Assembly: GCA_045541795.1 (NCBI GenBank)
Contig: JAZQJV010000018.1
Span: 197,134-261,133 of the forward strand
Source of the DNA: Patescibacteria group bacterium
GTDB taxonomy: Bacteria > Patescibacteriota > Microgenomatia > UBA1400 > PJMF01
DNA length: 64,000 nt
Reading direction: 5' to 3'
Shown: positions 26,405-63,579 of the stretch, piece after piece
Layout of the letters: each line of letters begins with the position of its first letter
Position numbering within the stretch: the first letter of the stretch is position 1
The notes under the pieces: model-generated
Databases searched by the model: none
Told to the model about the DNA's origin: nothing
Seen by the model: the letters and a program-made list of their open reading frames with translations, nothing else
Position numbers and translations under genes: made by a program

Positions 26405-27769
26405 ATGTATAGCAAATTTTTGGGGCGTTTGTTCCTCACGGCTAGTTTCATCCCGCTGGCCGTGGGGCGTGCTGCCGCCGCCTCCAGCACTACCACCACG
26501 ATGAAACTGATAGACACCCCGCTGGCTGCAGTGGTGGGTACGGGGGGACGCGTCAATCTCATCCGCACGGCAGATAACACTTGGCAAGCCACGGATAACT
26601 CCAACTGCCCAGACGGCGCTGCTTATCCCAACGGCACTGCTCACTGTTTTGCCGCCAAAGGTGATTACACCGCCGCCCAGGTCTATCAGTACTCCTGCCG
26701 CAAGCACACCTGCTCAGCCGATACCGTGTGGAATCCCGCCTCAGGCACCTGTATCCCGATCGTGGATTACGGCTGTACCCACACCAATAACTTCATGACA
26801 CTGCAAGACTGGGACGGCTGTAGTGCTCTGGCCACACCGGCCGCCGGCGGCAATAATTACACCGCTGGGCCGTGCTTGATCGACAATCGCGACGGCAAGA
26901 CGTACAATGTCCGCAAATTTGCCGACGGCAAATGCTGGCTGGCCAACAACTTGAAGTTTGGCGGCGATTATCACTACTGGCACAATATCAAAGGTCAGTC
27001 AGCTGATACCTGCGCGCTGCGGCTGGGCAGTAAGTGGCAGTCTGGCGGCTTCAACAATCTCTATACCAATCAGTCTGCGGCCAAGCCGCCCACCAATCGC
27101 TTCTGGCAAGGCTCTTACGGCGACTGCGTCTATCCGTACTCATCCACCTCTAGTAGTGATGCCAGCAATAAATACGGCTATCTTTACAACTGGATGGCAG
27201 CCGTACAGTCTCCTTGCGGCTGGTATAGTCAAGAATGTGATCCTGACGCCATGGCGACCAATACCGACGGCAAAGGCACCTACGGGACGCAAAAAATCCA
27301 AGGCATTTGTCCGGAAGGCTGGCATCTGCCCACGGGCGGTACTGGTGGCGAGTTTAATATCCTCACTGACCGGGTTGCTGGTATCACTGGTGGCAGTAGT
27401 CACTTGGCCGATGAGTCCAATACTGCCGGCGGTTGTTATACCAAAGGTAATACTACCTGTGGTATTTGGTCTGATACTAGCCGCAATGGTGGTAACGGTA
27501 GTTACGTTTTAACTTTCTTCAACCCTGGAGGAGGTTTTAATACTACTTATGCCGGCCGTACCAATTACATTGGTGAGTCTGGGGCTACAGAAACTACTGC
27601 CGTCGGCCTGATCTACCAGGGGTCGAACGCGCGCTATTGGTCCTCTACTGCTAGGTCTACTACCAACGCCTACGGCTTGGACGTGTACAGCTCGGGCGTG
27701 AGACCCCTAGGCTACCATCCGGGCGACAGCAAGTACTACGGCTTTTCGGTTCGCTGCGTGCTGGATTAG
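26405..27769 (+). CDS. Secreted Fibrobacter-succinogenes-major-paralogous (FISUMP/DUF1566-like) domain protein; DGR variable (target) protein
   Basis: Signal peptide. Motifs DNRDGKTYNVRKFADGKCWLANNL, YGYLYNWMAA, CPEGWHLPT and GFSVRCV match TIGR02145-type domains. The C-terminal 58 codons form the VR. Confidence 0.8.
   Translation: MYSKFLGRLFLTASFIPLAVGRAAAASSTTTTMKLIDTPLAAVVGTGGRVNLIRTADNTWQATDNSNCPDGAAYPNGTAHCFAAKGDYTAAQVYQYSCRKHTCSADTVWNPASGTCIPIVDYGCTHTNNFMTLQDWDGCSALATPAAGGNNYTAGPCLIDNRDGKTYNVRKFADGKCWLANNLKFGGDYHYWHNIKGQSADTCALRLGSKWQSGGFNNLYTNQSAAKPPTNRFWQGSYGDCVYPYSSTSSSDASNKYGYLYNWMAAVQSPCGWYSQECDPDAMATNTDGKGTYGTQKIQGICPEGWHLPTGGTGGEFNILTDRVAGITGGSSHLADESNTAGGCYTKGNTTCGIWSDTSRNGGNGSYVLTFFNPGGGFNTTYAGRTNYIGESGATETTAVGLIYQGSNARYWSSTARSTTNAYGLDVYSSGVRPLGYHPGDSKYYGFSVRCVLD
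27588..27764 (+). repeat. DGR variable repeat (VR) at the 3-prime end of the target gene
   Basis: About 175 bp matching TR (30483-30655). It differs at 18 positions, every one an adenine in TR. Confidence 0.9.
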
Positions 27770-27781
27770 GTTTCCGGTTTG

Positions 27782-27866
27782 GGGCGCGGCTGTGGACCCA
27801 CGACCGGCGGAGCTTATGCGCAGCCGAGGCGGCAGCTTGCTGCCAGCCACAGTGGGGACCGGCCGC
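27782..27866 (+). promoter_or_regulatory. GC-rich inverted-repeat/hairpin structure immediately 3-prime of VR (DGR homing-associated structure)
   Basis: ggcgcggctgtgg...ccacagtgggg...gccgcgcc imperfect long stem plus inner perfect hairpin GGCAGCTTGCTGCC. Confidence 0.6.
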
Positions 27867-27959
27867 GCCGGCCACCAAAAAAGTAGCTTGAGCAATAAAA
27901 ATTAATTAGAAAAAATTATAAATTATAAAGTAAATCAAACATCAAAAAAAAGGAATATT

Positions 27960-28946
27960 ATGACGACAAACTCCAAAAAAGCACCCATCAAAAATCAGGC
28001 CGCGCCGGCCAGCAACTCTGGCGTCGCCAAAAAAATCACCAGTGCGGGCGGCGAGCAAAGTGATCTTTTTGCCGGCATGGCTCTGCCGGAGGCGGCCAAA
28101 AAAGCCGAAGCTCGGGTCTTCAAGGTGGGCCTGAGTGCCAAAGAAAAAAAGACCGCCGCCAAAATCAAGGAAATCCGCAACCGCGACCACAAAATCGGCC
28201 TGATTGACGAGTGGATCGAGGCCGAAGACGCCAATTTTGACACGATCATCCTTCACAAAGAGTACGATATGTTTGTGGCTTTCAACCAAAGCGCTTATCA
28301 GCTGCGCGTCAAACTCCATCCTGGCCTCAAGCTCTACTTACAGCTCAACAAATACCGCCCCGAAGCCTTACGGGTGGCCTTGGGCAAAAATCAGCTGATA
28401 GACATCCGCCTGGCGGCCGAGGAAGCGGGCTTACAGATGCAAGAGTTCAAGGATGACAACCAAGAAGTGCAGACTATCATCATCTCCGGCCTCGCCACCA
28501 TCACCAGTGAAGAATTTAATAACTGGAAAGCCTCATACATTGCCAATATCGAAAAAGCCCAAGCTACCATCAAACCATTTTACGGCGACCTCAATATTTA
28601 CAAAAGTCTCATGGATCTATCCGTGATGGAAATGCACGCCGTGGGTAATTTCCCGCGTCACATCCGTGAGGTGATCGGCCCACAATTACTCTCACTAGTC
28701 ACGGCGGCCATCGCTCTCATCCGTGATGCCACCCTCAAAAAAGAAGACGAGCTGCCGCTGCCGCGCAAAATCGCTGTGGTGATGGAGCTGGAGAAAAATA
28801 TTGATCAGCAGGGATTTTTGCTACAGACATCTCTCAATCTCCAGGTGCTCAATACCGATAGCTTTGCCCGGCTCGCCAGTGTCATGGGTGAGCTCATCCA
28901 TCAGCTCACAGCCTGGAAATTATCCCTCAAAAAGAAACGGGCATAA
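27960..28946 (+). CDS. DGR accessory protein (328 aa; basic N-terminus, helical C-terminal region possibly Avd-like)
   Basis: Sits between VR and RT in the position usually occupied by avd, but is about 2.5 times longer than a canonical Avd. No recognisable enzymatic motif. Confidence 0.5.
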   Translation: MTTNSKKAPIKNQAAPASNSGVAKKITSAGGEQSDLFAGMALPEAAKKAEARVFKVGLSAKEKKTAAKIKEIRNRDHKIGLIDEWIEAEDANFDTIILHKEYDMFVAFNQSAYQLRVKLHPGLKLYLQLNKYRPEALRVALGKNQLIDIRLAAEEAGLQMQEFKDDNQEVQTIIISGLATITSEEFNNWKASYIANIEKAQATIKPFYGDLNIYKSLMDLSVMEMHAVGNFPRHIREVIGPQLLSLVTAAIALIRDATLKKEDELPLPRKIAVVMELEKNIDQQGFLLQTSLNLQVLNTDSFARLASVMGELIHQLTAWKLSLKKKRA

Positions 28947-28973
28947 GTAAAAAACACCGGTATATAGGCAAAA

Positions 28974-30227
28974 TTGAATGGTATCATGATCGTCGATCAA
29001 GGTGAAGTCTGGTTTGAAAGCCGCCGTCAGCAATATGTAGACAGTAATGACTGGCAGCTTTATGAGCGCCTCCTGACAGCTTATTTTGACGCCCGTCGCC
29101 ACAAACGCTCTACCAATAATCAGCTGGCATTTGAAATTGATTTGCTTCATCACGTCCAAGAACTATACGACGCCATCCATGATCGTCACTATACCCTCGA
29201 GCCTGGCATTGCTTTTGTGGTAGACGACCCCAAGCCACGCGAGATTTTGGCCGCCTCTTTCCGCGATCGGGTCGTCCATCATTTTGTCTGCAGTCTCATG
29301 ACACCGTACTGGGAGCCGCGTTTTATCGCCGACTCATATTCTTGCCGGGTGGGCAAAGGTACGCACTACGCGATCGCCCGGGCCCACAAGCACGCCCAGC
29401 GCCTCACGCACAATTACCGCGATGAAGCCTGGGTACTCAAACTCGATCTCAAGTGTTATTTTATGTACATTGACAAAGCCGTCTTGTGGGAGCTGATCCA
29501 GCCGATGTTTACGGCTGATGAGGATGCGCTCGCGGCCGGGCGCATCAGTGAGGAAGAGGCCCGCTATCATCTGGTACGCGGTTTTAATGACTATTTTGCG
29601 GCTGTTTTGGAATATTTGTTGCGGATCATTATTTTTTCCTGCCCGATGCTGAGCGTCCAGCTGCGGGGCAGACTTGATCGCTGGACGCTCCTTCCTGCCG
29701 AAAAAACCCTATTTATCGCGCCTTTTTGGCGCGGTTTTCCAATTGGTAATCTCACCAGTCAGCTGTTTTCCAATATTTATCTGCATGCTTTGGACTGTTT
29801 TATCAAATATCGGCTAGGCTTTACTCACTACGGCCGCTACGTAGACGATTTATACATGATGGATACGGATAAAACCCGCCTTAAGCGCGCCCGCACGGCT
29901 ATCGGTAAGTTTTTGGCCGACACACTTCATTTGCGCCTTCATCCTACCAAGGTGATTTTACAGCCCGTCAAGTACGGCTTTCCTTTTGTTGGTGGGGTAG
30001 TGCGTCCGCACTCCTGCGTGCCTACTCGCCGTTTCCAAAAACGCTACCAAAAATTTATGACCGGCCACTCTGCCCGGCATTACACCGAGTATCAGCGCTC
30101 CCGCATCGCTAGTTACCAAGGTCATGATACCAAGATCCGCCATCTGCCCGAGCCCAAGCGCACGCTCACACAAAAAAGGCTCAAAAGACTAGCCGACCAG
30201 CAGCAAGCGTGTATTTATCACCGCTAA
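28974..30227 (+). CDS. Diversity-generating retroelement reverse transcriptase
   Basis: RT motifs FRDRVVHH (1/2), SYSCRVGKGTHYA (3), LDLKCYFMYI (A), DGR-specific IGNLTSQLFSNIYL (motif 4, 29742-29762) and YVDD (29838-29849). Confidence 0.85.
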   Translation: MNGIMIVDQGEVWFESRRQQYVDSNDWQLYERLLTAYFDARRHKRSTNNQLAFEIDLLHHVQELYDAIHDRHYTLEPGIAFVVDDPKPREILAASFRDRVVHHFVCSLMTPYWEPRFIADSYSCRVGKGTHYAIARAHKHAQRLTHNYRDEAWVLKLDLKCYFMYIDKAVLWELIQPMFTADEDALAAGRISEEEARYHLVRGFNDYFAAVLEYLLRIIIFSCPMLSVQLRGRLDRWTLLPAEKTLFIAPFWRGFPIGNLTSQLFSNIYLHALDCFIKYRLGFTHYGRYVDDLYMMDTDKTRLKRARTAIGKFLADTLHLRLHPTKVILQPVKYGFPFVGGVVRPHSCVPTRRFQKRYQKFMTGHSARHYTEYQRSRIASYQGHDTKIRHLPEPKRTLTQKRLKRLADQQQACIYHR

Positions 30228-30482
30228 AAAGGGCTTTTTTAGTGTAAAATTAAATGGACGAAAGTCGCTCTTTGATAGCTGACGCCGTGCCCGCCCGCGT
30301 AAAATCAACTCTCGGGTGGAAGAAATCCAGCACAAAAGACCAGCCTGCTGCCGGCTTGCCGAGCGTGATAGGTATTTTGGTACCGGGGCCGCCAGGCCCG
30401 AGGGGTAATCACAAGTGGTCTGCAGTTATTTTTTTCACGTATACTGCACCAGCTGACCGTCCGCCGGTACGGTGATGACGGC

Positions 30483-30655
30483 AAAAAACTGCCGTCGGCC
30501 TGATCAACCAGGGGTCGAACGCGAACTATTGGTCCTCTACTGCTAGGTCTACTACCAACGCCTACAACTTGAACGTGAACAGCTCGAACGTGAAACCCCT
30601 AGGCAACAATCCGGGCAACAACAAGTACTACGGCTTTTCGGTTCGCTGCAATGCT
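30483..30655 (+). repeat. DGR template repeat (TR)
   Basis: Non-coding copy of VR lying 255 bp downstream of the RT gene. Rich in AAC codons in the VR frame (aac x10, aat x2, aaa x1 at variable sites). Confidence 0.9.
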
Positions 30656-30728: not shown

Positions 30729-31216
30729 AACGCACATCTAAATCGTAGCAAAGAGGATTTTGAAGTTCGGTGTAGATTCAATCTCCTACTGCTAATTAGA
30801 AATCGAGCTTACGTAGATTTCTTCTTACCGTACGTAAGGTTCTGTAACAGCGTGTGGAGTCCAACGTCAAGCGCTTGGATGCGACCTGGTATCGGTTTCA
30901 TGTCTTCAGTCTTTCTCTTTCTTGTCTGAGGTTTCTTGCTGCCGGTAGTGGTGGGGTTGAATTGCGGATGCATTTGGGAAGCGAACTCACACCCGCTCGC
31001 ACACGCTCGCGCGGGCAGCACGCCGTTTGCAGGATAATTGCAGAAGAAATTAATTTTCCAGGCGTCATGCATATTTTCCGGGGGAAGAGACGAGCAAACT
31101 GCCGTTGGTGACCAAAAGGAGTTTTCATCCGAACTTTTAGACCTTTTAAATCACGATCATGACGTTATCGCTCGTGAGTATTATACCATGAAAAAGTTGC
31201 TTGATGAGATTAAAAA

Positions 31217-32350
31217 TCAAGGTAGGTCTAGGTGAGCAATAATTTCCTCCTCACTTGGCAAAACATTTTGTAGGCTGTAGGTCGAAATGCCGACTGGTTG
31301 CCCACTTTTCTCGACTGTCCACTGGGCAACGACACTGTTTTTCTCTTTACAGATTAAAAGTCCGATAGTCTGCTTGTCCTGAGGAGTTTTGATCAGATGA
31401 TCGACGGCATTACAATAGAAATTTAATTTGCTGACAAATTCCGGTTGGAATTTTACTACTTTGAGTTCCACCACGATAAAACGTCGCAGTTTATAGTGAT
31501 AAAACAGTAGATCAGGGGCATACTCGTCGCCATTTACAACTAGCGGTACTTGCCTGCCCACATAAGCAAAGCCCGTGCCGAGTGTGAGTAAAAATTGCGT
31601 AAGATTGTTTTCAATTGCCTGCTGTAGGTCTTTTTCTTGATAATTTCTTCTCAAAGTCAGAAAATCTAATTTGTAATTATCTCGCAGAATTTCCCGAGCC
31701 AAATCACCCTCTGTCTTGGGTAGTGTAAGGGAGAAATTGTTGATTGTCTTGCCTCTTGTCTGGTAAAGTTTGGTATCAAGCATATTAAGCAGTGTTGCTC
31801 GACTCCAGTTGTTTTCTCTTACCTGAGCAATAAAAAACAATGCCTCATTCAGTGATTTGACTTTGGTAAAAATTTCGATGTGATGCCGCCATGGGATAGT
31901 AAAGATAATGTCTAAATGTTCATCTTTCCAATGGTCAATAGACGCTGTCTGCGATTCTGCATCAGGCTGGTGCAAAATTAAACCCATGGTAGATTCGTCA
32001 CCGAGTTGGTGACGACTTGGCAAACCCTTGAACTCTGCACCAAGTTGGTGCAGAATTGGGCTGTAGAACTCGTAAAACCGTTTCATATAGCGGATATTTC
32101 TTGCAGAGAAACCTTGTGCATCAGGAAATTCCACTTTAAGATCACGACTTAAATTATCGTAAAAACGACTGCCGTATTTGTTGTCAAACTGCTTAGTAGT
32201 AATATCTCTCCCTATCCGCCAGTAAAGTCGCAGCATCTGTTCATTAACAGCAATACTGGCTTTGATTTGAGTGTGAGCAATGTCCTTCTTGAGCGTTGAT
32301 AACCAGTGAACGTATTCTTGATTTTTGCTCGCCAATAATTCACTAGACAT
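31217..32350 (-). CDS. YhcG-like PDDEXK-fold nuclease (DUF1016 family)
   Basis: N-terminal DUF1016 region and C-terminal PD-(D/E)xK-like core (APDLLFYHYKLRRFIVVELKVVKFQPEFVSKLNFY). Confidence 0.65.
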   Translation of the reverse strand: MSSELLASKNQEYVHWLSTLKKDIAHTQIKASIAVNEQMLRLYWRIGRDITTKQFDNKYGSRFYDNLSRDLKVEFPDAQGFSARNIRYMKRFYEFYSPILHQLGAEFKGLPSRHQLGDESTMGLILHQPDAESQTASIDHWKDEHLDIIFTIPWRHHIEIFTKVKSLNEALFFIAQVRENNWSRATLLNMLDTKLYQTRGKTINNFSLTLPKTEGDLAREILRDNYKLDFLTLRRNYQEKDLQQAIENNLTQFLLTLGTGFAYVGRQVPLVVNGDEYAPDLLFYHYKLRRFIVVELKVVKFQPEFVSKLNFYCNAVDHLIKTPQDKQTIGLLICKEKNSVVAQWTVEKSGQPVGISTYSLQNVLPSEEEIIAHLDLP

Positions 32351-32456
32351 ATCAGACTTTCTTTTTTATACTTATAATTTACCATAAATAGTGCAAAATG
32401 TCAAATTTTCGTGCAACCTCAGTATATTTCGGAATAAAAATTCCTATCAAACAAAG

Positions 32457-33551
32457 CTATCTAAACTGACCGTTACAATAGTGATCTATTAAAATTCTTC
32501 TGTCAATTGAATCAGTCACTTCGTTATCAATAAATTGTGCACAACTAATGTCTGTTGATTCATGCAATAAAAACTCTGTAAATATCTTGAGAACAGTTTT
32601 TATTTCGCCTGTTTGATTATTTACTGTAAAACTCACACTATAACAATGTCCCATGCAGATATCACTAAAGGGGTTAATTGATGCATCAAATCTCTCAATG
32701 TGATTAGCGTGATCTTCGTCCGTGCTGATATCAGTGATACTTCTAATATGAATGTTTGATAAAGGATAGCTATATTCTTGTTTATCGAAATATTCATCAA
32801 CCGTACCATTAGTTTTTTGCGTGGCGGCGATCAATGAATTTCTTTGTTTTTCTTCAACTTCTTCAAACTCGTCCAGCATGCCCAATTCCCTTAAAGCTAC
32901 AGCATTTGCGTCAAATATTTGCATGTCTGAGTAATAGTATGTCAAAGAATATACTTTGCCGTCATATATGTATAATGCCAATCTATCTCCTTCTTCTATT
33001 CCACCAAAAGGATTACTTAATTGTCTGGTTTGATCTTCGATAAATCCTAACAACAATAGAGCTTTTTTGGCTTGTTCATAATAGAGTTCCATATTATCTT
33101 GATTAACTTCAATTATCCAATAGGCCAAATCGTGATCAGAACCAAAAGAATGTCTAAATTGTGGGCCACTCATAGTTAAAACAGGTTCTAGCGATTTTAA
33201 CCTCCACCAAGTATCGATGCCAACGCCATGCCAGCCTTTGGATTGGCCATATTCCCATCCATCATATAAAAGAAGATATTTTGAAATCTTTTGATTCAGT
33301 TGTGAAGAGCTTTGATTTGCACCCTCTAAATCATCATTTTTTTCTTTCAAATTAGTCAATTCATTTTCGCCAATATTGTCTAATTCCAAATCATGGTCGG
33401 ATGTCTCTTGTAAAGAATTTTTGTCTGACTTTTCTATGGTGAAATTTAAGTACATAGCTATCACAGTCAATATACATAACACTGCTAAAACAAATATAAC
33501 TATCCTTTTGTAAAAAGGCTCTATTGCAGTAGCTTTGTTATTATTTGGCAT
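32457..33551 (-). CDS. Hypothetical membrane-anchored acidic protein (364 aa) in AT-rich DNA
   Basis: Single N-terminal TM then an acidic soluble domain. Local GC is clearly lower than the surroundings. Same strand as yhcG, 106 bp upstream of it. Confidence 0.45.
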   Translation of the reverse strand: MPNNNKATAIEPFYKRIVIFVLAVLCILTVIAMYLNFTIEKSDKNSLQETSDHDLELDNIGENELTNLKEKNDDLEGANQSSSQLNQKISKYLLLYDGWEYGQSKGWHGVGIDTWWRLKSLEPVLTMSGPQFRHSFGSDHDLAYWIIEVNQDNMELYYEQAKKALLLLGFIEDQTRQLSNPFGGIEEGDRLALYIYDGKVYSLTYYYSDMQIFDANAVALRELGMLDEFEEVEEKQRNSLIAATQKTNGTVDEYFDKQEYSYPLSNIHIRSITDISTDEDHANHIERFDASINPFSDICMGHCYSVSFTVNNQTGEIKTVLKIFTEFLLHESTDISCAQFIDNEVTDSIDRRILIDHYCNGQFR

Positions 33552-33628
33552 ATCTGCATTATTACATCACGTTTATATTTCTTATTAATCAAGATTATTC
33601 ACGATTGCGACGAGAAAGACCCTTTTTG

Positions 33629-33702
33629 TGACCCCAAAGGGATTCGAACCCTTGATTTTTTGGATGAGAACCAAATGTCCTGGACCGCTAGACGATGGGG
33701 CC
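33629..33702 (-). tRNA. tRNA-Glu (anticodon CTC)
   Basis: Acceptor GGCCCCA/TGGGGTC. Anticodon stem TTTGG/CCAAA with loop TTCTCAT. T-arm GGGTTCGAATCCC. Confidence 0.8.
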
Positions 33703-47423: not shown

Positions 47424-47462
47424 AAATTGCCTCTTGACAAAATGACCAAAGTATGCTATAAT
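47424..47462 (+). promoter_or_regulatory. Extended promoter motif (AAAATTGCCTCTTGACAAAA-N-TGCTATAAT)
   Basis: -35 at 47434-47439, -10 at 47457-47462, spacing 17. Confidence 0.6.
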
Positions 47463-47470
47463 AATATATT

Positions 47471-47830
47471 ATGAATACTTTTGATTTAGAGCTGCGCGTG
47501 GGAGGACATGAATACCTCGCTCGTTTTGAGGATAATCCCGCCAGCCGCAAGCTCAAAAGCGGCGTGCCTTGGAAGCTCGAAATGGCTGACCTCGACCGAC
47601 TCGAAAAATACTGCTATCTGGAAGACGTGACGTTTCCCACTGATGCTCGCCGCCCAGACATAATTAAGGCCGGCCAGCTCTACCTTTTTGAGGAAAACTG
47701 CTTGGTGCTTTTCCTGGAAGACTGCCGCAGCACCTATCGCTACACTTATCTCGGGGAAATTATTGATCCGGTCAAACTCAAAGATTATGCCGGCACCAGT
47801 CAGTGTATCGTCGAAATCCGCAAGCGCTAA
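47471..47830 (+). CDS. Hypothetical protein (119 aa)
   Basis: Intact ORF 9 nt downstream of a strong promoter; no recognised motif. Confidence 0.4.
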   Translation: MNTFDLELRVGGHEYLARFEDNPASRKLKSGVPWKLEMADLDRLEKYCYLEDVTFPTDARRPDIIKAGQLYLFEENCLVLFLEDCRSTYRYTYLGEIIDPVKLKDYAGTSQCIVEIRKR

Positions 47831-55557: not shown

Positions 55558-56289
55558 TTACCAGTCCCAGGCACGAGATGTCGTGCCAGTTTTCTGATAT
55601 GTGTCTTCCGGCTCAGCTTCAGCAGGTGTCGGTTGACGATCCAGAAGGCTGTCGCGAAACTGGGTGGTAGACTGATCAGCTCGAGCGGGCGTACCAATCC
55701 TTTCGGCGCCGCCAAAAAGCACCGCTTTTTCCTCGCTCGTCACCAGATCCACGTCATCCAAGTCATCACCAGGCAGATCATCGCCGGCATGAGCGTTGGC
55801 CACCGCATCTATGACTTCCTTATAGTCAGGATGCGCACCGTCGTATTCTGCCTGACATGCCGCTTCCTGAGCCTGCACGGACATGCGGGTGATGGTAATA
55901 TGAAATCCCAGCGGCGTCACCTCTACCGGCACCACCGCAAAAAGCCTCCCCACCTCATTGAGCCTGCTCGTAAAAATAGAGCACACTGCCGTCGGTATTT
56001 CTGGCCAGACTGTCTCCAGGAACTTATCCCGGATGCTTTCCATGTCAATGATTTTACTGAGTATCTCCGGGCGAGATACCGTACCTTCCTGACCATTGAC
56101 TGCAAACGTATCTCTGCGCCGACTGACCAAAAAATCTGTCAGCCCAAACTCGCACATCTGATTGATGCAGACGTCCACGATCTGCGCCGCCGTCATTGTA
56201 GACGTCACCGGGTAAGTGCCCACTAATTCCTGTGCCTCAAGGAGTCTGCAAGCTACCTCACGCAAGTCATCTGACTTTGTCATTACCAT
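55558..56289 (-). CDS. Hypothetical acidic protein (243 aa)
   Basis: Intact ORF driven by the extended promoter at 56328-56370. Confidence 0.45.
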   Translation of the reverse strand: MVMTKSDDLREVACRLLEAQELVGTYPVTSTMTAAQIVDVCINQMCEFGLTDFLVSRRRDTFAVNGQEGTVSRPEILSKIIDMESIRDKFLETVWPEIPTAVCSIFTSRLNEVGRLFAVVPVEVTPLGFHITITRMSVQAQEAACQAEYDGAHPDYKEVIDAVANAHAGDDLPGDDLDDVDLVTSEEKAVLFGGAERIGTPARADQSTTQFRDSLLDRQPTPAEAEPEDTYQKTGTTSRAWDW

Positions 56290-56327
56290 TGTTATTTACC
56301 TCCAAAATTTTAAGGATCAAATATATT

Positions 56328-56370
56328 ATATTATATCACACTTTATTAATTTTGTCAAGAGGCAATTTTA
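56328..56370 (-). promoter_or_regulatory. Extended promoter motif (AAAATTGCCTCTTGACAAAA-N-TGTGATATAAT) on minus strand
   Basis: -35 is the reverse complement of 56353-56358 and -10 the reverse complement of 56330-56335, spacing 17. Confidence 0.6.
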
Positions 56371-56548
56371 CCTGGTAAATAGGCATAATTTCGTAATTGA
56401 TGTATTTTACAGACAATTATAAAAACTGACAAATTACCACTTTTTCGTACACCCGAGCAAGCAAAAGCCAAAATCCGTACGCACTGATACATAAAATTGG
56501 TCAAAAATTGCTGGGTAAATTTAAAATTATAACTGCTAAAATAGTGCT

Positions 56549-56779
56549 ATGACAAAAAAAATCTCCATGTGTACAACAATTACTCTCTTGGTTTTGGCCC
56601 TGGCTACGACCGCCTCCACGCACTCACTGACCCCAAAAAAATCGCTGCGCCCCGGGCAAACTCCAGTCAAAAAAACGACACTTACCAGGCACACTCGCCA
56701 CAGCCTAGAAAAGTTGGAAGTGACACCAGAGCCGGCAGTAAGCATTAGTAATGACAATTTGCGTGCCGCCAGCGAGTAA
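56549..56779 (+). CDS. Small secreted protein (76 aa) with signal peptide, hypothetical
   Basis: MTKKISMCTTITLLVLALATTAST signal-like N-terminus. Located in the 5-prime region of the giant surface-protein gene. Confidence 0.3.
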   Translation: MTKKISMCTTITLLVLALATTASTHSLTPKKSLRPGQTPVKKTTLTRHTRHSLEKLEVTPEPAVSISNDNLRAASE

Positions 56780-56823
56780 TTTGGAGTAAAAAAAAGTTTG
56801 AAGAAGATTTAAATAAAGGACAC

Positions 56824-59800
56824 ATGAAAACGAAATTTAGCCAATTATTACTAAAAATTAGCCCCCTGATGCTGGTTTGCTGCCTCACGCTGCTGTCTGT
56901 CAGCCGCGCGCAGGCCAAAATGTGTTCTTTTAGCGTGGAGGAAGGCGCTACACCCGCTGTCGCCGATAGACGGCTTTATTGGTACAAGAGCGAAAAAGGC
57001 CTCCCGGATGAATACATCCATGACTATGAGCTGACTTATCTCGGGGAAAATGATCCCTGCCCTACGGCCGAATACGACGGCGAGTCAGGACGCATCTTAA
57101 TGAGACCCGACGAAAATTACGCTCCCATGGATCTACTCATACCAGCCCTGGCCGCTCTTGAAGCCCAAGATGCCGACGGTAATCATACCGAATCCCGTGG
57201 TCAGGAGTGGCCGTGGAAGGATTCTGGCACCTACGTGCGCATCGAAGGGCTCTATGACCAAAGTGTCATCCCTTGCGGTACGGCCGTCGGCGACCAGTGT
57301 GACTGGGACTGGGGTATCAATAAAATCACTTATACTTACAAAGGCACTTACAAAGTCGATGCCCAATACGAAATGATGGTGCAGTTGACCAATACCAGCG
57401 GCTACGCCGGGCCAAATTTTTACATCGACAGCTATGACCAAGCTGCCAAAACCATCACCATGTCTCCCGACTGGCGTGGCAGTGAGCACTACTATACCAA
57501 TCCTCACTACGCCCTGGGTGCGCTTTCTGGCGCCTACAAGTACTTAACGGCGCACGACTACTCGGCACAAGGCGAAGTCACCTTTATTCTCGATACCGCC
57601 TATTCATACCCTTACGTACCGATCAAATCCATTACCTACAAAGACGGCAAGCTTAGTAGTGACGTTTTTGTCAGTAGTGTCAGCAATGTCAAGACGATTA
57701 GCTTTGATGAGTTTGACTATGACGGCTACTCGCCAGTGACACGTGTCGCCAGTTATAATCCCGGCTCAATTCCTACCTACTACTACGACCAATCAGTTTA
57801 CCCATACGTCCGCCGCACACTCACTCTCCAAGCCGCCACCAATTCAAGCCTCGAGGCTGCCACCGGTTTGATGGCCATCATGTATGACATTTATGGCAAC
57901 AACACCCCAGCCGAGATTTACTTCACTGGCGAAAGCTTCGCCAAAGCCACCATGAGCATTGTTGGCCAAGAAACATATTACGCCTATCACTTCCCCGATG
58001 ACAGCACTATTAACGGCACCGATATCTTCAATCTCTCTGCCCTCCACCAGGTAGATGCTACCCATTACACGGCTGTCTTTAATGATCAAGCCACACTAGA
58101 TGAAGGCATGATTTTTGCCTTGATGAATCAAGGAAAAGTGTTTGACATCACTTTTGAAGATCCGGCCATGCCTGGCACATTAAATTTTGAAGATGGCGCA
58201 TTTACCTTAAGTTTCGCCGATGCTGAGCTGGCTGGCAGCGATCTCGCGGCAAAAATCACCTCGCTCGAGGCCATTCTCAATGGTGAAAAGATGCAGCCCG
58301 ACCAAACCGCAGTCGACGTTTACGAGCTCGCCAACGACTGGCTGATCAATGTCGACGGATCCGACATCACCTATTTAAATTTCTACCTCGAGACGCCCTA
58401 TTTTGGCCGGCTCATGACGATTGATCTCGAGGACGAATCAATAAATGTCGACTATACTGACTATGTACTTGCCCCAGGTACTTCTGCCAGCGATGCTGCC
58501 ATTATCTACATGCAACTGATTGGTCAATATCTGGACGATGAACCAGAAACATTTGACGATAAAGGCGTCGCCGCCGACTCTATCGACGAACCTATCAACC
58601 GGATTTATTACGACGCGGACTCCGCGCGTACGAAGGCGATCCTCATGGGTAATTCCACCTTTGCTGACGGGCTTAATATCGCCTCGCTCATCACAAACGG
58701 CGTCGAGGTCAACTACCAAGTCGGCCACCCGCTCTCCATCATCACCCATGTCTATGACGAATTTGACGTCATCCTCAGTGAAAACGCCACCCAAGCCTGG
58801 CTGCGGGAGCACTTAGCCGAGCTTACCGGTTTCCCCGGCATCGGCGTGTACACTGGTGACGTCATGGATGGCCCCGTCCACCAGCTTGGTGACATTCTTT
58901 TTGCCGGCACGGATGAGCAAGGCAACCTCGCCCTTGATTATTACGCCTCAGACGAAATTGATGTCTACATTGACCAGGCGGAAAGTAGTATCATTCATGA
59001 CGCCAGCGCCAGCAGCGAAGCGGCTTTAGTCAAAGAAGTCGGCCTCGTGGCAGATCTAGTCGCGCATCTTGGCCTTGACGAGCAAGTAAATATCACGGTC
59101 GGCACTACCCCAGGCGCCGCTGTAGCCACCATTGACGCTCTCCAAGGCAAAGCCGCCAGCGGACAAATTGTCCTCCACGTCACTGATCATACCGGCACTT
59201 ACGGCACTTTCTCCGTCCTGCAGATGCCCGAGCTGCAAGAGCAAACCAGCTCCTGTGGCCGTGACGGCGTCCCATACTGCGCTCACCCAGACACTTACGC
59301 CGGCAAAACGCTCATTTTTACCAATGATCTTGCACCCGCCACCATCCAGCAGCTGGCCGCTAGCGTCCACTCAGATAAAAATTACTTAGTGATGGCGCAG
59401 TCTACCAGCCAACCGGCGCAGACCGCCTCCCTCTGGAGCAAGCTCATCAAGCAGGCCTATGCCGCCAGTACCAATTACTATCTGCTCGAGTATGACGCCA
59501 GCAATCAGCTTCAATCCCTTGGCGTCACCACTCTTGACGACTCCATGCAAGCCATCATTGACAGCTGGCGTCAAGTTGCCGGTGACTTTACCCTGCGCTT
59601 GCTAAACGAGCAGGCCATCAGCGAAGCTACCCTCATTTACCTGGCCACCACCAGTGACACCGCTTTTGCCGATGTCATCAACTACGTGGCCACAAACGCC
59701 GCCGACGGCCTCAATGCCGAGATCTACGGCCAAGACTTTGCCATCCTCGTGATCGCCGGTAAAGTGACTCAGGTCAATTTCACCGAAACGACTACAAGAG

Positions 59801-60435
59801 AAGAGGTCGAAGCCGCCATTGCCGGTACTAAGGGGCAGTTTACCGTCAATTTTGGTTCCGTCACCATGCTTGCCAGAGATGGCGTCCTTTTTGAGATCAA
59901 AACGATCTCTCTTGAGCCAGGATTAAGCGCCCCGCAAAGCCGCAATGTGCCCAGCAATGCCCGCCCGCAAGGCTGCGATGCGTCTATCCCTGTGGGCAAG
60001 GCAGATCTTTTCCAGATCGACCGCCAGGCGGACAAAGCCACGCTCTATTTCACGCCCGTGCGTGACAACACCGATCGTTACCACGTGATGTTTGGCTACG
60101 CCGAAGGCGATGAACGCTTCTCTGGTGTCGCCCTCCAAGTGACCGCCGAGCAAAACAACGGTGTCTTGGCGCTTGACATCACCAATCTTGACCCACGCCA
60201 GGTCTATTCCTTCAAAGTCGCACCTGTGCACGAGTGTGCCGTAGGAGTGTGGTCCAATTGGCTGACAGCTGCACCCACCAGCGCCTCACGAGTCACGCAT
60301 ACCTACCGCTACTACTCTCAAGAGACTAAGCCTGCTGCCTACCAGCCCGCCTCAAGCACTACAGTCGAGAGCCCTACTCAGCGCACCACCCAAATCGTCA
60401 CCGCTAAATACTCTCAGGTGACCCGCAAAAAATAA
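56824..60435 (+). CDS. Giant secreted/surface protein (1203 aa) with C-terminal FN3-like module
   Basis: Signal peptide, acidic repetitive body, then a C-terminal 170-aa module shared with the downstream paralog (LDITNLDPRQVYSFKVAPVHECAVGVWSNW, FN3-like). Terminator at 60463-60486. Confidence 0.7.
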   Translation: MKTKFSQLLLKISPLMLVCCLTLLSVSRAQAKMCSFSVEEGATPAVADRRLYWYKSEKGLPDEYIHDYELTYLGENDPCPTAEYDGESGRILMRPDENYAPMDLLIPALAALEAQDADGNHTESRGQEWPWKDSGTYVRIEGLYDQSVIPCGTAVGDQCDWDWGINKITYTYKGTYKVDAQYEMMVQLTNTSGYAGPNFYIDSYDQAAKTITMSPDWRGSEHYYTNPHYALGALSGAYKYLTAHDYSAQGEVTFILDTAYSYPYVPIKSITYKDGKLSSDVFVSSVSNVKTISFDEFDYDGYSPVTRVASYNPGSIPTYYYDQSVYPYVRRTLTLQAATNSSLEAATGLMAIMYDIYGNNTPAEIYFTGESFAKATMSIVGQETYYAYHFPDDSTINGTDIFNLSALHQVDATHYTAVFNDQATLDEGMIFALMNQGKVFDITFEDPAMPGTLNFEDGAFTLSFADAELAGSDLAAKITSLEAILNGEKMQPDQTAVDVYELANDWLINVDGSDITYLNFYLETPYFGRLMTIDLEDESINVDYTDYVLAPGTSASDAAIIYMQLIGQYLDDEPETFDDKGVAADSIDEPINRIYYDADSARTKAILMGNSTFADGLNIASLITNGVEVNYQVGHPLSIITHVYDEFDVILSENATQAWLREHLAELTGFPGIGVYTGDVMDGPVHQLGDILFAGTDEQGNLALDYYASDEIDVYIDQAESSIIHDASASSEAALVKEVGLVADLVAHLGLDEQVNITVGTTPGAAVATIDALQGKAASGQIVLHVTDHTGTYGTFSVLQMPELQEQTSSCGRDGVPYCAHPDTYAGKTLIFTNDLAPATIQQLAASVHSDKNYLVMAQSTSQPAQTASLWSKLIKQAYAASTNYYLLEYDASNQLQSLGVTTLDDSMQAIIDSWRQVAGDFTLRLLNEQAISEATLIYLATTSDTAFADVINYVATNAADGLNAEIYGQDFAILVIAGKVTQVNFTETTTREEVEAAIAGTKGQFTVNFGSVTMLARDGVLFEIKTISLEPGLSAPQSRNVPSNARPQGCDASIPVGKADLFQIDRQADKATLYFTPVRDNTDRYHVMFGYAEGDERFSGVALQVTAEQNNGVLALDITNLDPRQVYSFKVAPVHECAVGVWSNWLTAAPTSASRVTHTYRYYSQETKPAAYQPASSTTVESPTQRTTQIVTAKYSQVTRKK

Positions 60436-60519
60436 TTACCAACCACCTAAGCAGCATCTCCAATCAGTCCTTCGGGACTGATTTTGCATCTGCCCGACTT
60501 TAAAAGATCAAATATAATT

Positions 60520-60562
60520 ATATTATAACATACTTTATCAAATTTGTCAAGAGGCAATTTTT
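60520..60562 (-). promoter_or_regulatory. Extended promoter motif copy (minus orientation) between the two giant paralogs
   Basis: About 85% identical to the 56328-56370 copy. Points antisense into the 3-prime end of the upstream giant gene. Confidence 0.45.
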
Positions 60563-60647
60563 CCTGCGCAAACTAGTGACTACTCCCTCATAAATTTTGC
60601 CAAAATTTGGCCGTGAAAATTAGACACAGTACTGATAAAATATACCC

Positions 60648-63473
60648 ATGACAACAAATTTCAAAGCAAAACTGACAAAATTACTATTCACAAGTTTTAC
60701 TGTCCTTGCACTCGCCGTGACCACTGGAAAATACGAGGCTGTCAATGCCCAAGCCAGTCCGCAAACACTCACCCTTGATCTCTATCAGCTGTACGCCTGT
60801 AATGAACTAAGCGATACTACTGCTTGCAGCGAACTGAGTACCTGGGCAGCTAATTTGGCCGCTCTTGATGTCAGCCAACCGCTCGGCATCCAGCTGACAG
60901 CCTCAGCTAATGACAATTTACAAACGGTGACGTTGGCCGATGCATTGGCGCTTCTTGACGATGACAGCAATTTTGATCTCAAGGCCTGGGCGAATCAGCT
61001 TACCTTGAGTCTTGATAACGAGGCCATGGATTTTTTAAACCTGCAAATTTATGACTTTTACCAAAGCACCAGCCCTGTAACCTATGAGTTTATCAGTTAC
61101 GAGTATAATACACAAACCCGCTATGCCCTCCAGGCCAACGTGCGGATTTATACCGCGCAAGAGTTAGTAGAAAATGCTTACCCTGACCAAACAGAGATTT
61201 TTTCCAATGTCGCCACTGACCTGCGCGATCAATTACAAAATTATACCGGCACCAATTTAGAGGAAATAGACATTAGTGTGCAAAATGATGAAGCCCTCCT
61301 GATCACCGCTGTAGATGGAGACTTACATGAACTCACGATTACCAGCCATGACATTGCCACCGCCACGCCGTACATTGCTATCTTTGCCATGATGGGTGAC
61401 TTTGCCGAAATTGTGGATGAAAACGGCGATCAGCTCGCTCTGGCACATTATCCCGCCGACAGCGTGCTTTGGATTGCTGTAGATGACTACAACACGCTCA
61501 TTGACCTGACTTCCAGTGAGCAGGGGATGGGAGAGCTTGCCTTTAACGTCACCACGACCAATAATATCGTCAATTTACAGACACTCATAGAAGATCCAGA
61601 TACCGGCGAATACAATTATGATTTTGATTACATTGAAACGACTACCGCCGGCGGTGACGGCAACACGGTGCAAATTGACCTTGTCCAGCTCGACCGCACA
61701 CAGTTCGCGCCACAAGGCGCTGTCAACTTGATCAATTATATCGCCGCCAATGCTCTGCTGCAAGACAGCAATCCTGACGTCGATCTACTGGACCTAGACG
61801 CCGTGGCGCTGACGGTCACATTGGATGAAAACGTCACTGCCAGTGTCAGCTATGACCAGCAGGAGCAGCAACCCGTCCTCGCCCTCGGGGATGACACTGC
61901 GGCGGCCATCCTCATGCTTTCCGGAAGCCTCGATGAAAGCATCCGCGCCCTCAATCTACCTGAGAGCAACCTGCAAATCACGGGGTCATTATCAAGCGTT
62001 AATTACGACATTGAAGTCAAGGTTGACGCCAGTGGGGAGGTAAGCACCTACACGAGCGTGAACACGAGTGAAACCATTGATCCAGACACTCAAGCCGCCA
62101 TCATCGCTGATCTTATTACCACCGGCGGTGACATTACCATCACCACTCCCGAGGGCGAGCTCGCCATACTCACTGTCACCGACGAGCAAACGGCGCAAAA
62201 GAGACTTTACTATTTCGCCGCCAAGGCTGGCCAAAGCCTCACGACAACTGCTGATATCCTGACTGTGGCCAAGCTCACCCGCGATATTATTGCGGTCGTC
62301 CCTGCTGACATCAACAGTGTCTATGTTGGCCTGAGTGACGGCATGCAAGAACTTGAGTCTATCTCCACCTTGGCGGAAAACGGCCAGATTAAAACTGTCA
62401 GCTATAACGCACTCACCGTCAGTACTGATAGTGAAGCACTCAAGGAGTTGTTGCCAGCAGTCGCCTCTCAGACTCCGGCAGCGGCCAGTATCAGTATCCA
62501 CGCTACACGAAGCAGTGATGAGACCAAAACCCTGTCTATTTTTGGCATTACCAGCCCGAGCGCCGACGTTTTTGCCACCGTCAAGCAGGCGATCAGTGAA
62601 GACTCCACCGCTATCGTCCAGTTGCTCGCCCTCGAAAGTGTCAGCGGGCAAATGCACACTGCCAGAAGTAGCGACAACATCGTCTCGGCAACGATTAACA
62701 CCATCACGCGCCTTGAAGATGATCAGCTGACCTTATCGATTACCGGCACTGACTTCACGATCAATATCAAAAACGGCGCTATTTATGCCGTCATCTTCAC
62801 CGCCACCACTACCCGGGAGCAAGTCGAGAGTGCCATTGCTGGCTCTCAAGGACAGTTTATGGTCTATTTTGGCTCTACTTACATGCTGGCCCGAGACGAC
62901 AAACTTTACGAGATCGCCACCCCAGCCAACGATCAGCCAGCTGCACCCACCTCAGATCCTAATGACCGCCACGCCAGCAGCCGCAACGTCCCCAACAACG
63001 CCCGGCCTCAAGGCTGTGACGCCTCCTTACCAATCGGCCAAGCAGATCTTTTCCAAATCGACCGCCAGGCAGACAAGGCGACGCTCTATTTCACGCCCGT
63101 GCGTGACAACACTGACCGTTACCACGTGATGTTTGGCTACAGCGAGGGTGACGAGCGGTTCTCTGGCATCGCCCTCCAGGTCAGCAGTGAGCAAAACAAC
63201 GGCGTCCTGGCTCTCGACATCACCAATCTCGACCCCCGCCTGACGTATTCCTTCAAGGTTGCCCCCGTGCATGACTGCGCCGTGGGTACGTGGTCAGCGT
63301 GGCTGACGGCTGGTCCTACTACCACTTCTCGTGTCAGCCACACTTATCGTTATGCTAATGAGCCGGTAAAATCACCTAGTTTGCCTACCTCGAGTCTCAC
63401 TACAAAAGCGGGCAGTGAGGGCAGTGTGCAAATCGTCACTGCCAAATACTCACCCGTTACCCGCCAGCACTAA
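60648..63473 (+). CDS. Giant secreted/surface protein paralog (941 aa) with the same C-terminal FN3-like module
   Basis: Signal peptide and acidic repetitive body. The C-terminal 170 aa are about 85% identical to the 56824-60435 product. Terminator at 63504-63528. Confidence 0.7.
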   Translation: MTTNFKAKLTKLLFTSFTVLALAVTTGKYEAVNAQASPQTLTLDLYQLYACNELSDTTACSELSTWAANLAALDVSQPLGIQLTASANDNLQTVTLADALALLDDDSNFDLKAWANQLTLSLDNEAMDFLNLQIYDFYQSTSPVTYEFISYEYNTQTRYALQANVRIYTAQELVENAYPDQTEIFSNVATDLRDQLQNYTGTNLEEIDISVQNDEALLITAVDGDLHELTITSHDIATATPYIAIFAMMGDFAEIVDENGDQLALAHYPADSVLWIAVDDYNTLIDLTSSEQGMGELAFNVTTTNNIVNLQTLIEDPDTGEYNYDFDYIETTTAGGDGNTVQIDLVQLDRTQFAPQGAVNLINYIAANALLQDSNPDVDLLDLDAVALTVTLDENVTASVSYDQQEQQPVLALGDDTAAAILMLSGSLDESIRALNLPESNLQITGSLSSVNYDIEVKVDASGEVSTYTSVNTSETIDPDTQAAIIADLITTGGDITITTPEGELAILTVTDEQTAQKRLYYFAAKAGQSLTTTADILTVAKLTRDIIAVVPADINSVYVGLSDGMQELESISTLAENGQIKTVSYNALTVSTDSEALKELLPAVASQTPAAASISIHATRSSDETKTLSIFGITSPSADVFATVKQAISEDSTAIVQLLALESVSGQMHTARSSDNIVSATINTITRLEDDQLTLSITGTDFTINIKNGAIYAVIFTATTTREQVESAIAGSQGQFMVYFGSTYMLARDDKLYEIATPANDQPAAPTSDPNDRHASSRNVPNNARPQGCDASLPIGQADLFQIDRQADKATLYFTPVRDNTDRYHVMFGYSEGDERFSGIALQVSSEQNNGVLALDITNLDPRLTYSFKVAPVHDCAVGTWSAWLTAGPTTTSRVSHTYRYANEPVKSPSLPTSSLTTKAGSEGSVQIVTAKYSPVTRQH

Positions 63474-63579
63474 AGCGTGCCTTTACCTCACCGGCGCGCA
63501 CCAAAATCAGCCCTTCAGGGCTGATTTTGGCCTTGTCAATCTCCACTTTTCGTGTTATAATAACTCATCTTTAACAAAT

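Follow-up and report, generated by a model that had tools for sequence, protein, structure and literature searches.

What do two adjacent giant genes of a patescibacterial chromosome have in common, and what might the common part do for the cell? The genes, A and B, lie in a 64,000-nucleotide (nt) stretch of a Patescibacteria group bacterium (assembly GCA_045541795.1, contig JAZQJV010000018.1, positions 197,134 to 261,133), here termed the window, to which all coordinates refer. Our analysis shows that the products of both genes carry a fibronectin type III (FN3) module that belongs to an uncurated, distinctive and highly conserved FN3 subfamily, found at the C-terminus of secreted proteins with otherwise unrelated cargo. 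We lean, with modest confidence, toward the view that A and B are Sec-exported acidic proteins that this module retains at the envelope and whose bodies have been diversified by recombination.

Architecture of the two proteins and the extent of their relationship

The principal features of the two genes are the following (aa, amino acids; ORF, open reading frame; pI, isoelectric point):

56824..60435, plus strand: gene A, a 1203-aa ORF; aa 1-31 of the product resemble a signal peptide and are followed by an orphan body and the C-terminal unit common to A and B
59935..60315, plus strand: FN3-type C-terminal module of A (aa 1038-1164; Cys1051 and Cys1138; ends ...THTYRYY)
60316..60432, plus strand: S/T-rich spacer and basic tail of A, ending QIVTAKYSQVTRKK; pI 9.9
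60648..63473, plus strand: gene B, a 941-aa ORF; aa 1-34 of the product resemble a signal peptide and are followed by an orphan body and the C-terminal unit common to A and B
62976..63356, plus strand: FN3-type C-terminal module of B (aa 777-903; Cys790 and Cys877; ends ...SHTYRYA)
63357..63470, plus strand: S/T/P-rich spacer and basic tail of B, ending QIVTAKYSPVTRQH; pI 9.5

Both proteins follow the same layout, namely a signal peptide, a lineage-specific orphan body, a conserved pre-domain, a low-complexity linker, the two-cysteine FN3 module, an S/T-rich spacer and a basic tail. They would be exported by the Sec pathway: judged by eye, their N-termini feature a K-rich n-region and a hydrophobic core, followed by AQA/K in A and VNA/Q in B. 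Both are strongly acidic (pI 4.33 for A and 4.06 for B), Cys-poor and rich in Ala, Thr, Ser, Asp and Leu, with the charge distributed unevenly between a body of pI ~4.1 and a tail of pI 9.5-9.9. The few cysteines form close pairs at 151/159, 811/819 and 1051/1138 in A, and at 51/60 and 790/877 in B. The first-pass annotation had described these products as giant, acidic, repetitive and endowed with signal peptides; the acidity and the signal-like N-termini hold, but self-BLAST recovered no internal repeats in either protein. Among 5.8 billion clusters, the only homologs of the bodies of A and B alike are strain variants. As read from the sequence, the C-terminal tails …TQIVTAKYSQVTRKK and …VQIVTAKYSPVTRQH contain neither an LPXTG motif nor a hydrophobic segment, and a terminal motif, Q[IM]VTA.Y..V.R, is kept in A, B and two further alleles, although the spacer ahead of it varies.

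The relationship between the two proteins is confined to their C-terminal ends: BLASTP aligned only residues 938-1202 of A with 669-940 of B (62% identity over 273 aa, E = 8e-104), which bears out the earlier proposal that the C-terminal similarity is true homology and not a consequence of low-complexity composition. The identity is unevenly spread, with 45% over the ~100-aa pre-domain and linker, 86% over the ~123-aa module and 41% over the last 40 aa, the tails being alike just in their last ~14 residues. Hence, the ~85% identity formerly assigned to the last 170 aa describes the module and not the pre-domain or the tail. Upstream of this unit BLASTP detected no homology between the bodies, and hhalign returned a probability of 0.3%, on very thin profiles; tandem full-length paralogy is accordingly unsupported. 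From these alignments, paralogy of A and B is demonstrable only for the C-terminal unit. Moreover, with a synonymous divergence (dS) of 1.40 (proportion of synonymous differences, pS, 0.63) against a non-synonymous divergence (dN) of 0.09 in the module, and saturated synonymous sites in the pre-domain and tail, this paralogy is evidently ancient.

The C-terminal module defines a distinct FN3 subfamily

The module is confidently predicted to adopt the seven-stranded beta-sandwich fold of FN3 domains. At equivalent positions in the two proteins the Pfam FN3 model, PF00041, scores 14.4 bits in A and 17.1 bits in B, below its 25-bit gathering threshold; it matches 26 of 55 relatives at E ≤ 1e-5, and NCBIfam yielded no relevant match to A or B (E ≤ 1). 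An exhaustive profile search recovered 2,121 cluster representatives at E ≤ 1e-3, 1,057 at ≤ 1e-10 and 80 at ≤ 1e-30, with the weaker or multi-stretch matches including some ordinary multi-FN3 proteins, whereas a word-indexed search found eight relatives only. The 67 best single-domain matches span lengths from 191 to 2,201 aa, and yet the module ends within 10 residues of the C-terminus in 59 of them and within 3 in 36. When ten modules are aligned, of which only two come from A and B themselves, the mean column identity is 68% and 29 positions are invariant. The hallmarks of the subfamily are the Cys pair, DLFQIDR in the A-strand, an FTP motif, a GDERFG loop, the signature C-A-x-G-x-W-S-N-W-L and a terminal aromatic-Arg-aromatic strand. 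It thus differs from generic FN3 domains (PF00041) in adding the Cys pair, DLFQIDR, GDERFG and the aromatic-Arg-aromatic end, in being far more conserved, and in occurring singly at the extreme C-terminus and not in tandem arrays.

The proteins that carry the module share further features. An N-terminal hydrophobic segment is present in 50 of the 55 fetched members, the other five resembling truncated gene calls. In these 55, the 30 residues ahead of the module are rich in S, T, P, G, N and Q (median fraction 0.67, against a background of 0.44), and the body has a pI below 5.5 in every case (median 4.2), while the module has a median pI of 6.75. The C-terminus of many members is a short tail of basic and amphipathic-looking character, for example …FYRYWDKVRNLFR or …YKYKVIIKNKIKTLINKFL. 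In a Roizmanbacteria-type subgroup (L009-L016) an S/T/P-rich spacer of ~50 aa comes after the module and leads to a conserved tail rich in basic and aromatic residues (KKSWWQKFIEYF…, KKSWWQKFIEYFKS...), an order loosely like that of A and B; this amphipathic-looking tail may be a second, membrane-proximal anchoring element. The matching tails of A and B had themselves been proposed as a sorting or anchoring signal: their terminal motif is indeed kept in four sequences, but a 40-aa tail of this kind is absent across the family, given how close to the module most members end.

Ahead of the module, the cargo is diverse and includes Peptidase_S8, Beta_helix, NHL, Laminin_G_3, BNR/sortilin, BspA-type LRR, GH5 cellulase, FG-GAP and SdrD_B domains. 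NCBIfam models further identified choice-of-anchor Q domains (n=7), a GloVer choice-of-anchor repeat (n=2) and a T5SS/PEP-CTERM-associated repeat (n=2) in family members; the choice-of-anchor Q matches lie upstream of the module and four of them score above the curated cutoff. No curated sorting-signal model corresponds to the module in A or B, nor does one appear among the 25 of 30 family-wide NCBIfam matches that were listed.

The related loci, drawn from species-representative genomes, comprise five records named Patescibacteria or Roizmanbacteria, the rest being metagenome-assembled genomes (MAGs) with generic or doubtful names, and each of three related genomes has two copies of the module. 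Within the window there are no copies beyond those of A and B. The closest cross-genus relative is a 1176-aa protein encoded beside rpoBC in a goat-jejunum MAG (L002, with L001 equivalent); it has only the C-terminal ~230 aa in common with A and B, at 57-60% identity. Searches of the literature on Patescibacteria, Saccharibacteria and the candidate phyla radiation (CPR) for FN3, C-terminal domains, sortases or hypervariable surface proteins brought up no such tag, and in Pfam, NCBIfam and the literature open to search we did not find this FN3 subfamily described as a near-universal C-terminal tag of secreted proteins in Patescibacteria-type genomes.

A potential role in retention or targeting at the envelope

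Why should so conserved a domain be confined to the ends of such disparate proteins? The choice-of-anchor families of NCBIfam are defined by preceding different C-terminal sorting signals in different lineages. The FN3 module fills this slot after choice-of-anchor domains, and chiefly on this basis we infer that it retains or targets its carrier proteins at the envelope. Like the PEP-CTERM, LPXTG and type IX secretion system (T9SS) signals, it is preceded by choice-of-anchor Q, GloVer and PEP-CTERM-associated repeats; elsewhere such families end in a short motif and a transmembrane helix, whereas here the terminal element is a folded FN3 domain of ~125 aa. A and B themselves contain no choice-of-anchor domain. 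The first-pass annotation had allowed for the module being a known generic domain devoid of an anchoring role; the fold is a generic FN3, but its strict C-terminal placement on diverse cargo argues for anchoring or targeting.

A parallel is offered by the C-terminal domain (CTD) of T9SS substrates, a beta-sandwich of roughly 80-100 residues. In Bacteroidota, this conserved domain at the extreme C-terminus directs unrelated secreted cargo to the surface and attaches it there (PMC4560394; PMC8545088). The FN3 module resembles it in its extreme C-terminal placement on diverse secreted cargo, but has no sequence relationship to it (no NCBIfam or Pfam match) and comes from another host lineage. To our knowledge, Patescibacteria lack an outer membrane, unlike the hosts of T9SS, and no T9SS genes were seen in the window.

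If the module acts in this manner, it might bind an envelope component non-covalently, or be recognized by a dedicated machinery. The near-neutral module and the basic tail could then lie at the anionic envelope, with the acidic body projecting outward. A more ambitious proposal, which we hold tentatively, is that the module is the recognition tag of a Patescibacteria-specific surface-display system, with A and B as its hypervariable host-contact or S-layer cargo. This would make it a functional counterpart of the LPXTG/sortase, T9SS CTD and SLH systems, displaying proteases, lectin-like, beta-helix and LRR proteins and orphan giants. Surface display and host recognition in the ultra-small, episymbiotic Patescibacteria are largely unknown beyond type IV pili. 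If the proposal is true, a single recognizable C-terminal tag would mark the surface proteome of many uncultivated Patescibacteria genomes, be usable for surface display or pull-downs in the few strains that can be cultivated, and point to its most variable cargo, A and B, as candidate determinants of host specificity or phage reception.

Several points weigh against retention at the envelope. The signal peptides of A and B were read off the sequence by eye. FN3 is a very common spacer and binding fold of bacterial exoproteins, and a C-terminal FN3 could be a mere ligand-binding or stabilizing domain. Neither a sortase nor an exosortase nor any similar partner is encoded in the window, where the first-pass annotation had suggested looking for sorting machinery more widely in the genome. 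Since A and B extend 40 aa past the module, this lineage does not need a strictly free C-terminus at ...YRY. The acidity of exoproteins may reflect a general trait of the proteome and be silent on orientation. Finally, a structure model of full-length B, with the three known alleles as the alignment, has a pLDDT of 33.6 and a pTM of 0.23.

These points bring up the alternative that the FN3 domain ending A and B has an ordinary role, be it structural, as a spacer or in ligand binding, with no part in retention or targeting, and that A and B are released exoproteins that happen to have it in common. We regard this as unlikely, though it deserves a hearing: such a role accords poorly with the unusual conservation of the ten modules, with the fact that 88% of the best members have a single module, placed at the extreme C-terminus, with the low-complexity linker that precedes it, and with its position downstream of choice-of-anchor domains.

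Mosaic alleles of the bodies

The signal peptides and the domain architecture also suggest that the variable part of A and B is exposed at the surface. To assess that variability we compared the window with L018, a syntenic 35-kb metagenomic contig that encodes MurG-FtsW-MraY-MurA, a 251-aa gene, a 76-aa ORF, a 1195-aa gene, a 944-aa gene and CofD, and with L019, a contig that bears a third allele of gene B (P0154, 960 aa, here B19; the L018 allele is B18). The comparison with L018 gave the following:

MurA: dS 0.075, 99% aa identity
MraY: dS 0.10, 100% aa identity
243-aa gene divergent from A: dS 0.415, 84% aa identity
57724..58623, plus strand: hypervariable segment of gene A (codons ~301-600), dS 0.8-1.1, aa identity 54-75%
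60648..61785, plus strand: hypervariable N-terminal third of gene B (codons 1-394), pS 0.69-0.84 (saturated), aa identity 44-56%

At the nucleotide level, identity falls from 95-99% in the housekeeping genes to 81-85% in the 243-aa gene, 63-85% at 57600-58600 of gene A and 50-69% at 60604-61785 of gene B, before jumping to ~95% at ~61786. Outside codons 301-600 the dS of gene A is about 0.1-0.5, and the ratio of non-synonymous to synonymous divergence (omega) is below 1 throughout. Since the 243-aa gene diverges faster than the adjacent MurA, the hypervariable zone would begin ahead of A and B.

The three alleles of gene B are all distinct in residues 1-290. In residues 290-388 B is B19-like and unlike B18, in 388-640 the three agree, and from ~640 on B is close to B18, with B19 72-86% identical. 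B19 is therefore a mosaic whose breakpoints differ from those of the B/B18 pair. Because the synonymous sites are saturated too, the divergent segments do not look to have diverged in place since the strains split; on this sequence pattern, they are best read as old alleles exchanged by homologous recombination. The combination of raised synonymous and non-synonymous divergence, sharp boundaries and allele-specific breakpoints, seen by inspection of the compared alleles, is that of a mosaic surface antigen, and the variable surface protein that the first-pass annotation had postulated thereby gains support at the population level, against a background of dS 0.075-0.10 in housekeeping genes. 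We found no earlier description in the searchable literature of such a recombinational mosaic in two orphan giant genes. If the bodies are exposed, the swapping of old allelic segments by recombination would keep them diverse, as expected of proteins that contact hosts, phages or competitors, from any of which diversifying or frequency-dependent selection might arise.

A comparable hotspot is known from Gracilibacteria (BD1-5), where variation in a gene for a hypervariable predicted extracellular protein was read as related to attachment (PMC6851277). The two cases are alike in featuring a localized variation hotspot in a predicted extracellular protein of a CPR genome. In the gracilibacterial gene, however, the hotspot is a PTD tandem-repeat region in which the nucleotides vary and the protein is conserved (PMC6851277), whereas in A and B the segments are non-repetitive, differ at both the protein and the synonymous level, and point to an exchange of old alleles.

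The third allele merits two side observations. Positions 1-90 of L019 recur inverted at 3262-3346, ~250 nt past the gene, and the copy holds a promoter-like site, TTGACA-17-TATCTT; the gene is flanked by an inverted repeat, unless the recurrence is an artefact of assembly. The terminator of the L019 allele differs in sequence from those of A and B but has the same design.

A conserved end joined to a strain-variable body recalls S-layer proteins. In Lactobacillus SlpA and SlpB the C-terminal part is conserved and binds the wall, whereas the N-terminal part is variable and forms the exposed lattice; S-layer anchoring domains such as SLH are also found on exoenzymes, and cryo-electron microscopy has reportedly revealed S-layers on ultra-small CPR cells. 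SLH-type and Lactobacillus-type anchors are like A and B in coupling a conserved wall-binding end to a strain-variable body and in the reuse of the anchor on exoenzymes, and paired S-layer genes of the Lactobacillus type likewise have only the anchoring third in common. They are unlike A and B in fold class, there is no family match between them, and wall binding by the FN3 module is hypothetical.

Thus, a specific version of envelope retention would have A and B as alternative S-layer or S-layer-associated subunits, with the C-terminal unit binding the cell wall and the variable N-terminal body as the exposed lattice. The size, pronounced acidity, scarcity of cysteine and Ala/Thr/Ser/Asp/Leu-rich composition of the proteins speak for it, as do the strong terminator and the probable leaderless or strong-promoter start described below, and the conserved anchor end with a body that varies among strains. 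We nevertheless judge it distinctly improbable: neither Pfam nor NCBIfam detected an SLH or other S-layer domain in A or B, the low-confidence model of B, unusable as a structure, gives no lattice-type fold, and two bodies without mutual similarity would need different lattices. Retention of A and B at the envelope by the FN3 module, without commitment to a lattice, remains our preferred reading.

A probable generic promoter, on the minus strand, within the upstream repeat

How did two genes with a common end but unrelated bodies come to lie side by side? The first-pass annotation had noted that the sequence upstream of A recurs between A and B, and had interpreted this as the duplication of a whole promoter-gene-terminator unit followed by divergence of the N-terminal bodies. 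The repeat is genuine, with its two copies about 90% identical and differing by one indel, but the perfect promoter that a consensus scan found in both (TTGACA-17-TATAAT, with an extended TG) lies on the minus strand:

56308..56374, minus strand: repeat copy 1 (-35 at 56358-56353, -10 at 56335-56330, extended TG), facing the 243-aa gene
60499..60566, minus strand: repeat copy 2 (-35 at 60550-60545, -10 at 60527-60522), antisense to gene A and facing its terminator and 3' end

By scan and inspection, the repeat contains only weak plus-strand candidates (9/12 matches), which are not kept between the copies. A 19-nt core, TTTGTCAAGAGGCAATTTT, is present in 10 copies across the two strands of the window, where 0.04 would be expected, and all ten oriented copies (at 1569, 15294, 22877, 35371, 39829, 43204, 46431, 47423, 56351 and 60543) conform to AAATTGCCTCTTGACAAA-N13-TGnTATAATA. 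Several face a nearby gene or tRNA start (DnaK, a cell-wall hydrolase, a 171-aa ORF and tRNA-Arg), and the copy at 1569 is, like copy 2, antisense, in this case to the murC 3' end. Among the fetched loci the extended motif is present in the same-species locus L018 only. A conserved TTGCCTC just upstream of the -35 exceeds a normal sigma-70 site.

The repeated element is therefore most plausibly the genome's generic strong sigma-70 promoter, facing away from A and B; we rejected it as the promoter of these genes on account of its minus-strand orientation, its ten copies in the window and the apparent service of copy 1 to the 243-aa gene. The duplicated promoter posited earlier survives as a repeat, though not as a promoter of A and B. 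As inferred from sequence, copy 1 would drive the divergent 243-aa gene and copy 2, if active, would yield an antisense transcript across the 3' end of gene A. Copy 2 has no gene start downstream and is 95% conserved in L018. A practical caution for annotation follows, namely that a perfect consensus promoter beside a gene may serve the other strand.

Copies 1 and 2 also resemble each other beyond what the generic motif would impose: over the spacer and -10 their identity is 81%, compared with a mean of 54% for the other pairs, and the match runs ~18 nt past the -10 with one indel (56308-56325 versus 60499-60516, 89%). For this reason we take copy 2 to be a genuine duplicate of the promoter of the 243-aa gene together with its first transcribed bases. 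The paralogy of A and B being ancient, the ~90% identity of the 67-nt element would have to reflect functional constraint or a later copy event, and not a neutral relic.

These observations bear on whether the complete unit was recently duplicated in tandem, with the N-terminal bodies then diverging fast through point mutation. The likeness at both ends of the units (the 67-nt element, the C-terminal 273 aa and terminators identical at 22 of 25 positions) and the closeness of copies 1 and 2 compared with the other eight, including the short gapped match past the -10, are what such an event would leave. We nonetheless consider it highly improbable and largely refuted. The dS of the module and the saturation of the pre-domain and tail mark an old event, of which a neutral 67-nt relic would not stay 90% identical; the element is a generic promoter in ten copies that faces the wrong strand; the bodies show no homology even in profile-to-profile comparison; and the divergence between strains saturates synonymous sites as well, which signals allele replacement and not fast point mutation. 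The whole-unit duplication originally envisaged is accordingly abandoned in favor of an old C-terminal paralogy.

Transcription start of gene B and terminators

Where gene B is likely to be transcribed from, and where both genes end, is indicated by three further elements:

60633..60641, plus strand: extended -10 box TGATAAAAT, 6 nt ahead of the gene B ATG and without a Shine-Dalgarno sequence; likely promoter of gene B
60462..60486, plus strand: intrinsic terminator of gene A (folding energy -14 kcal/mol, z = -3.35; UUUUG follows)
63505..63529, plus strand: intrinsic terminator of gene B (folding energy -22.3 kcal/mol, z = -5.3, for the plus strand and -24 kcal/mol for the minus strand; UUUUG follows)

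The same -10 arrangement is found in all three alleles of gene B, including that of L018 and, as TGCTATAAT, that of L019. Given a -10 box 6-7 nt before the ATG in every allele and no Shine-Dalgarno sequence, gene B probably has an extended -10 promoter of its own and a leaderless mRNA. Gene B (60648) and a small ORF at 47471 have in common a start codon 6-8 nt past a -10 box and the lack of a Shine-Dalgarno sequence (47457-47473; 60633-60650), which suggests that leaderless mRNAs are used in this genome, from the starts at 47471 and 60648.

The same-type terminators that the first-pass annotation had placed after both genes are confirmed as stable hairpins followed by a U-run. They differ at three of their 25 positions, with one compensatory stem pair (T·A to C·G), and are the sole such sites in the window. 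At the gene B terminator an A-tract and a T-tract flank the stem, so that a hairpin can form on both strands.

Neighboring genes and the wider window

The genes immediately upstream of A are:

55558..56289, minus strand: divergent acidic 243-aa ORF, with GGAGG 9 nt ahead of its ATG
56549..56779, plus strand: basic 76-aa ORF ahead of gene A, its product hydrophobic over an N-terminal segment; also called in L018 (89% aa identity, omega 0.59)

The 243-aa protein has no Pfam or NCBIfam-type family match. The 76-aa ORF is probably co-transcribed with gene A, and a weak promoter-like site lies ahead of it at 56498-56527; small ORFs upstream of the giant gene of L002 look unrelated to it by eye. Directly past the gene B terminator, a near-consensus promoter, TTGTCA-17-TATAAT with TG at 63533-63561, lies 19 nt before tRNA-Gln and presumably serves the tRNA-Gln/Thr pair.

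This placement raises the alternative that the 8-kb block of the 243-aa gene, small ORF, A and B is a mobile or phage-derived island at tRNA-Gln/Thr, with A and B as phage receptor-binding or tail proteins. The block does adjoin two tRNA genes, all of it diverges faster than its flanks, and the third allele of gene B sits in another sequence context with an inverted repeat around it. Yet the synteny from MurA to CofD is repeated in a second strain, the block contains no integrase, phage or transposase gene, its GC content equals that of the flanks, the signal peptides fit cellular export, and the module family occurs mainly on ordinary secreted enzymes; the case for an island is weak and we give it scarcely any credence. 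The window as a whole is an ordinary chromosomal region that spans dcw genes (MurC, MurB, LytR, FtsA, FtsZ … MurG, FtsW, MraY, MurA), along with genes for RRF, EF-P, DnaK, SecDF and ABC exporters, and Rfam models recovered only tRNAs in it.

The window also encodes a complete diversity-generating retroelement (DGR) at 26405-30649, made up of a target gene with a Fib_succ_major domain (26405-27769), an ORF of unknown function, a reverse transcriptase (28974-30227) and a template repeat (30483-30649). All 16 of the 16 mismatches between the variable repeat (27591-27757) and the template repeat fall at template adenines. DGR targeting of A and B was rejected as a source of their variability: the template repeat 30483-30649 matches just 27596-27757 in the target gene and nothing in A or B.

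Two other loci in the window stand out. A 421-aa protein encoded right after ftsZ (8299-9564, plus strand) matches the ALK/LTK glycine-rich family PF12810 (E = 6e-41). At 31200-33700 the GC content is low (0.376 at 32-34 kb, compared with about 0.50 elsewhere); this part, which has a YhcG/PDDEXK nuclease gene and a 364-aa ORF of unknown function beside tRNA-Glu, may be a small foreign island.

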